This document shows, one piece after another, positions 51,499 to 53,691 of a stretch of DNA of 64,000 bases (its first letter is position 1; every line of letters begins with the position of its first letter). The notes beneath the pieces were generated by a model, which searched no databases, was not told where the DNA came from, and saw only the letters and a list, made by a program, of their open reading frames with translations. The DNA comes from Tannerellaceae bacterium (GTDB taxonomy: Bacteria; Bacteroidota; Bacteroidia; Bacteroidales; CAMTPD01), in contig JBOGCF010000043.1 of assembly GCA_051656605.1 (NCBI GenBank), positions 8,366 to 72,365 of the forward strand, written 5' to 3'. The position numbers and the translations under genes were made by a program.

Positions 51499-53658
51499 GT
51501 CGCACTCTACACGGGTGCGTGGATTGAAACCTCGGCCACATCGTTGTATATGGCTTATCAAATGACGTCGCACTCTACACGGGTGCGTGGATTGAAACTA
51601 TTTTGAATTGTTGAGACAGTAGATACTTAGGTGTCGCACTCTACACGGGTGCGTGGATTGAAACAAAGAACCTCTATACGTTGAGCATGACACCAGAAAG
51701 TCGCACTCTACACGGGTGCGTGGATTGAAACCCAAACACTTCGGAGGCTATGGGTACTTACAATCCGTCGCACTCTACACGGGTGCGTGGATTGAAACCG
51801 GCTTAATATCCATGTTGTTGTTACGAATCTCAAGTCGCACTCTACACGGGTGCGTGGATTGAAACTACAAAGAGAACAAGCGTGAGAAATGCCTTAAAAA
51901 GTCGCACTCTACACGGGTGCGTGGATTGAAACTGGGGAGTTCGTTAGAGATTCTGCCGCAAACTCTCGTCGCACTCTACACGGGTGCGTGGATTGAAACG
52001 TGTCGGAGCATACGGTCAGAAATCACACGCGTAACGTCGCACTCTACACGGGTGCGTGGATTGAAACATGATCTTATCATCTATCAGCATTGAGTCAGTA
52101 TAGTCGCACTCTACACGGGTGCGTGGATTGAAACCTGTGTAATCCATGAATGCTAACAAAGCTTCTCCTGTCGCACTCTACACGGGTGCGTGGATTGAAA
52201 CCTGTTACACCAGTTGAGTTTGCTAGCTCAACAAGGGTCGCACTCTACACGGGTGCGTGGATTGAAACAATGAAAAAAGCAGGTATAAATGAGCTGTTTC
52301 TTGAGTCGCACTCTACACGGGTGCGTGGATTGAAACATGCTCAACACTGTTATAGTGATTTACGAGCAATTCGTCGCACTCTACACGGGTGCGTGGATTG
52401 AAACACTGTTAAAATCTGATAATATAAGGGTTCGTTTTTGTCGCACTCTACACGGGTGCGTGGATTGAAACCTTGGAGCTTTAATTCCCCCTAAAGGCAC
52501 CATTGAGTCGCACTCTACACGGGTGCGTGGATTGAAACAGCGTCAGTATAATTAATTAGATCGGATGCTTTCCGTCGCACTCTACACGGGTGCGTGGATT
52601 GAAACAAGGCTTTATATTTGCCCTCAGCCCTTAAACGTGTCGCACTCTACACGGGTGCGTGGATTGAAACGTACATACGTGAAACGCTTGCTGAAATCTT
52701 GACTGTCGCACTCTACACGGGTGCGTGGATTGAAACCTAGATGAATACGATTCTAAACATTTTGATAACTGTCGCACTCTACACGGGTGCGTGGATTGAA
52801 ACCGAATAGTAGGGTAAAAGCTTATCAATCAGTTGTGTCGCACTCTACACGGGTGCGTGGATTGAAACCGTTTTGAATGGTTACGATTTTATCAATTGAA
52901 TAGTCGCACTCTACACGGGTGCGTGGATTGAAACAGCTTCTTAGCCTGTGACTTGATTTGAGCCATTGTGTCGCACTCTACACGGGTGCGTGGATTGAAA
53001 CTCACCTACCGTTATATCCACTTTCTGACCGTCGTAGTCGCACTCTACACGGGTGCGTGGATTGAAACGCCCAAGCTCTAGCATTAGCAGCTGAACAGGC
53101 ATTGTCGCACTCTACACGGGTGCGTGGATTGAAACTTTAGTTTCTTATTTTCAAACTTCATTTGTACAACTGTCGCACTCTACACGGGTGCGTGGATTGA
53201 AACCCTTGCTGCTTTTAGTGTCTGCTAACACTATTTGAGTCGCACTCTACACGGGTGCGTGGATTGAAACAGTTCGCTAACTGTAAATTTCGAACCGTTT
53301 AGAGGTGTCGCACTCTACACGGGTGCGTGGATTGAAACTTGATTGGCTCGTACCGTCTATCTCCTTGATTGCGTCGCACTCTACACGGGTGCGTGGATTG
53401 AAACTCCTTCGAGATTGCAGCTCTAACAGCGTCATCTTGTGTCGCACTCTACACGGGTGCGTGGATTGAAACAGAAGAAGCTGCAAGAATACGAAGATAG
53501 GCTAAAAGTCGCACTCTACACGGGTGCGTGGATTGAAACGCACAGAGATTGCAGAAATGCGGGAGTTAATCGCTGTCGCACTCTACACGGGTGCGTGGAT
53601 TGAAACCTCAAACATTCAGAGGTGAAGGCAACCTAGCTAACGTCGCACTCTACACGGG
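51499..53658 (+). CRISPR. type I-C CRISPR array: 32 full repeats of 32 nt (GTCGCACTCTACACGGGTGCGTGGATTGAAAC), 32 spacers of 33-36 nt, and a 17-nt truncated 33rd repeat
   Basis: Every repeat start was indexed by hand (51499, 51567, 51633 ... 53575, 53642). The repeat ends in ATTGAAAC, as is typical for I-C. The last copy stops after GTCGCACTCTACACGGG. Confidence 0.98.
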
Positions 53659-53691
53659 CTGCCTGTTTTGCGTTGTGCAAGTAGGCAGCCC
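53656..53691 (+). repeat. 36-nt palindromic element, copy 1 (fused to the truncated last CRISPR repeat)
   Basis: GGGCTGCCTGTTTTGCGTTGTGCAAGTAGGCAGCCC. It has a 9-bp outer stem and an inner TTGC/GCAA stem, with one G>T difference from copies 2 and 3. Confidence 0.9.

Follow-up and report, generated by a model that had tools for sequence, protein, structure and literature searches.

A probable, inherited recombination scar ends a type I-C CRISPR array at the edge of a defence-gene hotspot in a Tannerellaceae genome

Background

Defence islands and hotspots between core genes carry alternative cargo, including different types of CRISPR-Cas systems (CRISPR, clustered and regularly interspaced short palindromic repeats). 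Here, we describe a 64,000-nucleotide (nt) stretch of DNA from a Tannerellaceae bacterium (hereafter, the window; GenBank assembly GCA_051656605.1, contig JBOGCF010000043.1, positions 8,366 to 72,365 of the forward strand), in which the last repeat of a type I-C CRISPR array is cut and joined to a palindromic hairpin element upstream of a SusC/SusD gene pair. The end of this array is probably a scar of recombination, since inherited, that lies at the right-hand border of a defence-gene hotspot.

The trailer ends of arrays are usually conserved, and polymorphisms of the terminal repeat are often substitutions or truncations in its 3' end (review, Garrett 2021, PMC8047081). In type I-C processing, Cas5c cuts the repeat after nt 21, reads U22-G24, and needs the base of the stem (PMC8524198). 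Group IIC introns insert after terminator stem-loops with a spacing of 3–11 nt (Toor, Robart et al. 2006, PMC1702495).

A truncated terminal repeat joined to a hairpin element

The following features make up the type I-C locus and its junction:

43733..51330, + strand: type I-C cas operon, cas3-cas5c-cas8c-cas7-cas4-cas1-cas2 (from open reading frames [ORFs] and domain or family matches)
51331..51498, + strand: AT-rich leader of the I-C array, 168 nt from the cas2 stop to the first repeat; also in relative L014, with single-nucleotide polymorphisms (SNPs)
51499..53641, + strand: I-C CRISPR array, 32 identical 32-nt repeats and 32 spacers of 33–36 nt
53642..53658, + strand: truncated 33rd (terminal) repeat, nt 1–17 only, preceded by a 35-nt spacer
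53656..53691, + strand: element copy 1 (E1), outer stem of 10 bp, inner stem of 4 bp; repeat bases stand in place of the AAGTAA lead

The operon has the type I-C gene set (cas5c, cas8c [csd1], cas7 [csd2], cas3, cas4, cas1, and cas2; no cas6). Cas5c, Cas8c/Csd1, and Cas7/Csd2 score above the NCBIfam cut-offs (TIGR01876, TIGR01863, and TIGR02589), Cas3 domains were found in the cas3 product, and Cas4, Cas1, and Cas2 were recognized by Pfam matches on the identical genes of contig L001. The exact repeat GTCGCACTCTACACGGGTGCGTGGATTGAAAC occurs 32 times at 51499..53606 and folds as ..(((((((.....)))))))........... (2+7+5+7+11 nt: overhang, stem, loop, stem, and 3' tail); the 11-nt 3' tail ends in ATTGAAAC and U22-G23-G24 are present, as in the described layout (PMC8524198). 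Because the cas operon and the 168-nt leader lie upstream, the truncated repeat is the leader-distal end of the array.

A preliminary description of this DNA had reported that the 33rd repeat is cut after 17 nt and fused to a 36-nt element, and this is what we found: after 32 perfect repeats, the stub at 53642–53658 reads GTCGCACTCTACACGGG (repeat nt 1–17, in register) and then continues as CTGCCTGTTTTGCGTTGTGCAAGTAGGCAGCCC. Missing from this stub are four of the seven nt in the stem's 3' arm, the site after nt 21 at which Cas5c cleaves, U22-G24, and the handle of 11 nt. The repeat side of the join reads ...CTACAC/GGG/TGCG..., whereas the canonical border of the element is ...AAGTAA/GGGCTGCC...; repeat nt 18–32 and the AAGTAA lead of the element are both gone at the junction, so that both partners are cut. 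GGG at 53656–53658 is common to the repeat (nt 15–17) and the element (nt 1–3). The 3-nt microhomology noted earlier therefore exists, but it is statistically uninformative, since an overlap of at least 3 nt is expected at 5.8% of random junctions.

Exactly the same join of array and element is present in L014 (Logan SRR13279713), an independent assembly that has diverged from the window (96% nt identity over cas1-cas2-leader, with SNPs in the leader, and 98% on the SusC side). The terminal spacer of L014 beside the junction differs from, and is unrelated to, that of the window. Because a diverged, independent assembly has the identical join, the junction is real and inherited, and the misassembly that the preliminary description had considered does not account for it.

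Among the I-C repeats, only the leader-distal one differs from the rest, in its 3' part. The same kind of 3' change is found in the terminal repeats of the window's type II-C array (cas9 at 21295–25200, array at ~26544–30074) and of the Cas6-type arrays in relatives L009 and L019. The II-C array end had been described as scattered mismatches and a clean 3' break as unusual; instead, its terminal repeat (30039–30074) is identical over 28 nt, with divergence confined to the last 8 nt (TGAGCAAT vs. CACACAAC), and 3' truncations are described in the literature (PMC8047081). A hairpin (CGAGGGGTAGA...TCTATCCCTCG) lies within a few bases of the II-C terminal repeat (region 30039–30110), and both arrays of the window (I-C and II-C) thus end against a hairpin.

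The junction lies at the border of a defence-gene hotspot

To place the junction, window and relatives were compared, with more contexts gathered through members of the window's SusC protein cluster:

43431..43438, no strand: left border of the variable (hotspot) region, where homology stops in L016, L018, and L013
53925..59176, + strand: operon of SusC (53925–57245) and SusD (57269–59176), the conserved neighbour

On the left, the matches are L016 1–215 to window 43215–43430, L018 1–85 to 43347–43431, and L013 1–61 to 43377–43437, and the flanking genes are housekeeping genes (hydroxylamine reductase, an HU-like protein, and a muramidase-like protein). On the right, the hotspot is bounded by a SusC/D-sulfatase-pheS block, in which SusC/D shows 84–98% nt identity in all relatives covering it. 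In the six relatives with the element upstream of SusC (L002, L008, L009, L016, L017, and L018), homology to the window begins exactly at 53656, and E1 is orthologous to their upstream element.

Different genes occupy the interval between these borders. L002 (metagenome-assembled genome [MAG] WFFMC_MAG_227) is homologous from 53656 through SusC at 89%, and upstream it has WYL, DUF2188, and unknown genes with no CRISPR. L009–L012 carry a Cas6-containing type I locus (I-B-like; repeat GTCTACATCGTACCATCAAGGAATTGAAAC) upstream of the element and SusC, in the order degenerate array-end repeat, ~74 nt, intact AAATAAGTAAA-element, and SusC. The cargo of L016 and L017 consists of a gene for a 1226-aa protein and the candidate system PDC-M07, and L018 has the same 1226-aa gene with other small genes. 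In L013, there are three unrelated genes, the element is absent, and homology resumes at 53715. L008, with the closest SusC (99% aa identity), has AAAGTAA and a slightly decayed element at the start of its contig.

The window region 43438–53655 is the cargo of a defence hotspot, the right border of which is usually the element plus SusC/D. The element-SusC/D adjacency is conserved and ancestral, and the CRISPR side is exchangeable cargo, which is the reverse of the earlier view that the array had been joined to whatever lay beside the element. Two other parts of that account are borne out: the junction is a recombination breakpoint rather than point decay, given that homology starts at 53656 in six relatives and both partners are cut, and the element copies, when mapped against synteny, coincide with synteny breaks in relatives. 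A terminator that is ubiquitous, combined with relatives that share the junction and have no longer array, was thought to speak against recombination; L014 does share the junction and no longer array was found, yet the element is not ubiquitous and predates the array.

Some further variation was seen in these loci. The sulfatase-pheS interval also varies, with a P-type cation ATPase in L010 (7566–10226), L011, L015, and L018, a 4Fe-4S ferredoxin-domain gene in L013 (10641–11411) and L016, and nothing in the window or L014. The Cas6-type locus of L009 (1–520) includes a second array upstream of cas6 with the variant repeat GCTCTAATCGTACCATCAAGGAATTGAAAC, and further orphan or degenerate repeats lie between this array and cas6. 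In L001 (a 2.9-kb contig obtained via a Cas2 look-up), ~340 nt of non-array, coding-like sequence (2519–2862) follows the first I-C repeat, and this contig is therefore uninformative on the array end; the switch is possibly an assembly path from a spacer into a matching target in the same sample. Exact-protein look-ups of the window SusC, the window DUF3800 protein, and MAG protein P0122 returned no record.

Origin of the junction

Based on these comparisons, we favour a model in which a conserved element of ~55 nt (A-rich AAGTAA lead, 36-nt stem-loop, and U-rich tail) stood upstream of SusC/SusD, with a second copy downstream, and in which DNA from ~43431–43438 to the upstream copy would have been exchanged between strains (I-C, Cas6-type CRISPR-Cas, PDC-M07, and other genes). 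On the cargo side, the join to the border would fall within the final I-C repeat, past nt 17, and on the border side at the G that opens the element stem; repeat nt 18–32, the AAGTAA lead, and whatever trailer there was would have been removed by it. Because both the repeat and the element are cut, we infer illegitimate recombination, possibly aided by the GGG overlap, which is compatible with microhomology-assisted joining. The event may have been a local deletion, which a comparison with L009 suggests was possibly <100 nt, or the join may mark where an imported I-C segment ended; the loss could amount to no more than 15 repeat nt, ~10 nt of lead, and a short trailer. That the older end of the array was removed, as first proposed, is indicated by nothing in the data: the loss may be tiny, and among the relatives examined none was found to have a longer I-C array, or one whose terminal repeat or trailer is intact. 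The different terminal spacers require that terminal spacers were later lost or replaced in L014 or the window, where the 17-nt stub would still give some homology.

Several observations weigh against this model. The state before the join is reconstructed only by analogy with the Cas6-type array of L009, no intact I-C end having been found. The unrelated terminal spacers in L014 and the window are unusual for a shared, supposedly stable trailer end. The break at 53715 in L013 shows that exchange in the hotspot need not end at the element. Lastly, an 8-nt complementarity flanking the element has no place in the model: GTGTAGAG (53700–53707, + strand, 8 nt past the element) is exactly complementary to repeat nt 7–14, CTCTACAC (53648–53655). 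Their pairing adds an 8-bp outer stem to the predicted hairpin, with a chance probability of 6e-4 to 4e-3 for a match that was noticed post hoc.

Two further ideas were rejected. GTGTAGAG is not a remnant of an inverted I-C repeat, since it is ancestral (present in CRISPR-less L002 and in L008, with GTGTAGGG in L016) and the similarity stops at 8 nt. Quasi-palindrome (hairpin-templated) template switching as the origin of the junction was ruled out by sequence reasoning, because the orientation of the loop is unchanged and the 8 nt AATACCAA that such copying should leave are absent.

Structure and distribution of the element

In addition to E1, the window contains two copies of the element:

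59203..59238, + strand: element copy 2 (E2), 27 nt past the SusD stop, with an AAGTAAA lead
60949..60984, + strand: element copy 3 (E3), identical to E2, with a AATAAGTAA lead; between PDC-M04B and the convergent sulfatase gene

The recurrence of the element at 59203 and 60949 that had been noted before was confirmed: the 36-mer GGGCTGCCTG[T/G]TTTGCGTTGTGCAAGTAGGCAGCCC occurs at 53656, 59203, and 60949, always on the + strand (0 matches in 100 shuffles), and the latter two copies are identical to each other and each match the 53656 copy at 35/36 positions. A total of 26 element copies was collected from the window and 18 related loci (in L009, for instance, at 8885–8920). AAGTAA(A) or AAGTTAA directly precedes GGGC in 24 of the 26, the exceptions being the two I-C junction copies (window and L014); the element is often led by GATATAAAGTAA and followed by TTG or TTT on the 3' side. 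Because the conserved lead and 3' flank accompany the 36-nt stem-loop, the real unit is ~55 nt.

The hairpin has a predicted folding energy of −24 to −34 kcal/mol (z −3.6 to −5.8), and 98.8% of the pair cells are paired across 16 distinct copies. Every one-sided substitution retains pairing on the + strand only (GC to GU, CG to UG, and GU to GC or AU). A covariation test was uninformative (shuffle control 437/500), with variation too small for compensatory changes. Across lineages the element is 92–97% identical, compared to ~84% for SusC/D coding sequence and 75–78% for the adjacent intergenic sequence. This conservation, which includes the 18-nt compound loop, suggests a constraint beyond simple hairpin formation or homogenisation between copies.

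As a stable, GC-rich hairpin directly downstream of transcription units (27 nt past the SusD stop, 9 nt past the DUF2188 stop in L002, and after PDC-M04B), with U-rich but interrupted 3' tails (TTGGTATTGTGT, TTTATTGGTTT, and TTGGTGTATAAT), the element most likely serves as an intrinsic terminator for transcripts of the + strand. Two points count against this part of the interpretation: a consensus terminator scan did not call the element, whose 18-nt compound loop and weak T-run are outside the rules of the tool, and a plain terminator would not need a loop sequence as conserved as this one.

The element is not a dispersed repeat family of the repetitive extragenic palindromic (REP) or miniature inverted-repeat transposable element (MITE) kind, which would be present in many copies. 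Using exact-stem patterns, which could miss diverged copies, we found only four hits in one genome per species (185,579 species), in three Tannerellaceae/Porphyromonadaceae MAGs with 1–2 copies each, and all four at two SusC/D-flanking sites. A metagenome scan with the element pattern (241 M records) yielded one true hit (L007, SusD-downstream site only) and one unrelated hit (L006), and scans of viral contigs for the I-C repeat and for the element gave no match. No target-site duplication was found at any element copy, no transposase (such as a REP-associated tyrosine transposase, RAYT) in the ORFs scanned, and no Rfam match at gathering threshold in the whole window.

Predicted consequences for transcription and for spacer 32

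Of the 3' stem arm, the stub retains just 3 nt, and the bases for cleavage and recognition are all missing; in the predicted fold, its GGG is sequestered in the stronger hairpin of the element. Pre-crRNA (precursor CRISPR RNA) would run straight into this hairpin and probably stop there, insulating SusC/D. The stub would be uncuttable by Cas5c; because it lacks the cleavage and recognition bases, spacer 32 would remain without normal 3' processing, and its crRNA is predicted to have a normal 5' handle and an abnormal 3' end. The function of the last spacer in such arrays should not be assumed.

A second variable site between two element copies

Between E2 and E3, the window shows a second scar; its features, and the gene that follows E3, are:

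59239..59355, + strand: 117 nt unique to the window strain, with no match in any locus and no blastn match in plasmids
59351..59445, + strand: fossil trailer end of a lost Cas6-type (I-B-like) array
59623..60781, + strand: two-gene candidate defence system PDC-M04 (A, DUF3800; B, 155 aa), found with PADLOC
61062..62642, − strand: sulfatase gene, convergent

All 13 of the 13 related assemblies that cover the SusD-sulfatase interval contain a single element there, with an E2-type left flank and an E3-type right flank (in every relative, what follows the single element corresponds to the right flank of E3). Only in the window are there two identical copies, with 1.7 kb between them, and PDC-M04 at the SusD-downstream site between two element copies was observed only in this strain. 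A gain or a loss of this segment is compatible with recombination between element copies in direct orientation, for which ~50 nt of identity suffices in ordinary homologous or slipped-strand events.

The fossil consists of a 5'-cut terminal repeat CATCGTACCATCAAGGAATTGAAA (59356–59379, 24 of 30 nt), a spacer-like stretch of ~36 nt, and a degenerate repeat (~59416–59445). It is homologous to the array end in L019–L022, where full GTCTACATCGTACCATCAAGGAATTGAAAC arrays (the same repeat as in L009–L012) precede it. These four samples, which are 93–95% identical to window 59356–61595, show the order Cas6-type array, terminal repeats, PDC-M04, one element, and sulfatase gene, whereas no cas genes of Cas6 type are present in the window. 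As judged by this homology, the window retains, as a fossil, the trailer of a Cas6-type array that has lost its spacers and cas genes. In L021 (~1964–2099), the sequence past the element and ~100 nt of sulfatase-side flank switches to Cas6-type repeats and spacers (AATTGAAAC... and GCTCCAATCGTACCATCAAGGAATTGAAAC); this is either a low-coverage chimera or another array-mediated rearrangement.

PDC-M04 A (ORF from 59497, end at 60312) and B (60314–60781) are adjacent and co-oriented, both are matched by their PADLOC models (E-values 7.5e-74 and 2.7e-53), and A has the Pfam domain DUF3800. The start of A is probably at 59623, the annotated ATG at 59497 being too early when compared to homologs of 229–238 aa.

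Shortly after E2, the stretch 59249–59316 (+ strand) has a sub-threshold similarity to group II introns at their 5' end (Rfam RF01998, 30.3 bits vs. a cut-off of 35, E 0.004–0.02). It starts 11 nt past E2 and has GTGCATG at 59253, and could be what remains of a class C intron that had entered downstream of the terminator hairpin. No domain V/VI or reverse transcriptase was found, and no RF00029 or other group II match at E <= 10 in 59100–61100. That the 1.7-kb segment as a whole is a group II intron was ruled out, because domain V/VI and reverse transcriptase are missing and its genes are those of PDC-M04.

Alternative explanations of the junction

A different account makes the element a dedicated att- or attC-like recombination site by which CRISPR-Cas, PDC-M04, PDC-M07, and SusC/D are shuffled, with the array fusion as a by-product. 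We regard this as improbable, even though it accommodates a number of observations. The element stands at the 3' end of each module in constant orientation, its loop is conserved beyond the needs of pairing, and SusC/D, like PDC-M04, is bracketed by two copies. The two identical copies around PDC-M04, as against one hybrid copy (E2 left, E3 right) in 13 relatives, are the pattern expected from element-by-element recombination, and L004 has the same element and right flank with still another left side. However, no integrase, transposase, or recombinase was found in the cassettes or in the large window ORFs scanned (in 1–40 kb, those of at least 120 aa), and direct repeats of ~50 nt are enough for ordinary homologous or slipped-strand events. 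In addition, the exchange in L013 ignores the element, the I-C break lies at the stem edge with the lead cut off rather than at a fixed internal crossover, and the element is local (1–2 copies per MAG; 4 hits in 185,579 species genomes).

An extension of this idea, which we likewise think has little chance of being right, is that the ~55-nt element, beyond being a terminator, would delimit the modules of a cassette system that is local and needs no integrase. Between near-identical direct copies, whole modules (two types of CRISPR-Cas locus, PDC-M04, PDC-M07, and even SusC/D) would loop out and re-insert at another copy. If true, this would account for the position of the Cas6-type locus, which is upstream of SusC/D in some strains but in others apparently downstream, as well as for the conserved loop; array ends at or near the element would be footprints of this traffic, and the cassette boundaries would point to an integrase-independent route for shuffling defence genes.

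If a small MITE- or REP-like mobile element had inserted into a terminal repeat that was still intact, this would account for a palindromic, multi-copy sequence at synteny breaks, but such an insertion is very unlikely. The remainder of the repeat (TGCGTGGATTGAAAC) is absent to the right of the element, where the ancestral region upstream of SusC is found instead, and therefore the element was not inserted into the repeat. There is also no target-site duplication, and the copy number is very low (one locus in three MAGs, none in viral contigs, and one true metagenome match).

Decay in place, whereby the terminal repeat was point-mutated and the hairpin arose from the old 3' half of the repeat plus trailer, is more doubtful still and can be considered refuted. 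Terminal repeats commonly diverge in their 3' part (PMC8047081), as in the II-C array, but the sequence from 53656 onward is 89–98% identical over several kb to the element and SusC of strains without I-C and matches two other window copies at 35/36. The sequence that replaces the repeat has its ortholog in the element of CRISPR-less strains and so cannot be a mutated repeat.

A collapsed or chimeric assembly of the array and a hairpin-bearing contig end has a negligible probability: short-read assemblies do break or collapse at arrays (collapse in L001, L010, and L014), but L014 has the identical junction in another sample and assembler, with a different adjoining spacer and SNPs on both sides, and the 17-nt stub is shorter than the assembly k-mer, which implies that the path from spacer through junction to element is read-supported.

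An illegitimate join at the hotspot border, inherited since, is the explanation that we retain. On this reading, the locus provides a sequence-level example of an array trailer end made by a single illegitimate join and then inherited, with no slow decay. Tools that orient or delimit arrays by terminal-repeat degeneracy should expect hard truncations.

Other features of the window

At 1693–7097, three genes form a block that includes MksE (PF21980) and a DUF3584 SMC-like protein of 1219 aa. The block resembles a condensin system of the Mks/Wadjet kind, with no JetD-like gene seen beside it. Directly past the II-C array, 30206–39422 contains five ORFs (222, 212, 630, 743, and 153 aa) without a Pfam match, followed by an 832-aa BT4734-like_N and DUF3987 protein of a kind found on Bacteroidales mobile elements, and this region may be another accessory or defence segment.

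Comparison with known systems

Like known defence hotspots, this one has fixed borders beside housekeeping and polysaccharide utilization locus genes, with at least five cargos in relatives, including the PADLOC candidates PDC-M04 and PDC-M07 and two CRISPR-Cas types. It is unlike them in that its right border is usually one conserved hairpin, a second copy of which, 5.5 kb away, borders a second small insertion site. One site in uncultured gut Tannerellaceae thus cycles through CRISPR-Cas types and candidate defence systems, leaving fossil array ends.

The element resembles intrinsic terminators in its GC-rich hairpin after stop codons, U-rich 3' flank, strand-asymmetric G.U pairs, and the position of E3 between convergent genes. 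It differs in its compound 36-nt stem-loop, conserved loop, and weak, interrupted U-tract, and in being near-invariant across lineages with 84% coding identity; termination here is predicted. As in integron attC sites and cassettes, or REP sequences and bacterial interspersed mosaic elements (BIMEs), imperfect palindromes stand at cassette 3' ends, direct copies bracket a cassette, and the cargo includes defence genes. The order of hotspot cargo-E, SusC/D-E, and PDC-M04-E, all on the + strand, is cassette-like, a resemblance to integron cassettes only. Unlike integrons, there is no IntI or recombinase domain in the large ORFs scanned in the 64-kb window (in 1–40 kb, those of at least 120 aa). 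Whereas attC sites are conserved in structure only, the element copies are near-identical and number 2–3 at one locus, and the RAYT or transposase of REP/BIME systems is absent. Compared to group IIC introns, the domain I-like 5' sequence 11–15 nt past E2 has the same orientation, but it is sub-threshold, only ~70–100 nt long, without domain V/VI or reverse transcriptase, and at a spacing slightly beyond 3–11 nt.

The closest parallel is with degenerate terminal repeats (PMC8047081). As in these, only the leader-distal repeat is altered, in its 3' part, and the truncated repeat, being a poorer recombination partner, may stabilise the array end. It departs from the usual cases in that 15 of 32 nt are replaced by an identifiable, orthologous hairpin that is itself cut, and in that the two strains with this junction have different terminal spacers. 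The I-C junction is nevertheless an extreme but recognisable member of the class of 3'-truncated terminal repeats, and the case, which involves no new mechanism, adds a new, well-documented instance of phenomena that were already known, namely truncation of terminal repeats, turnover of defence islands, and swapping of CRISPR types.

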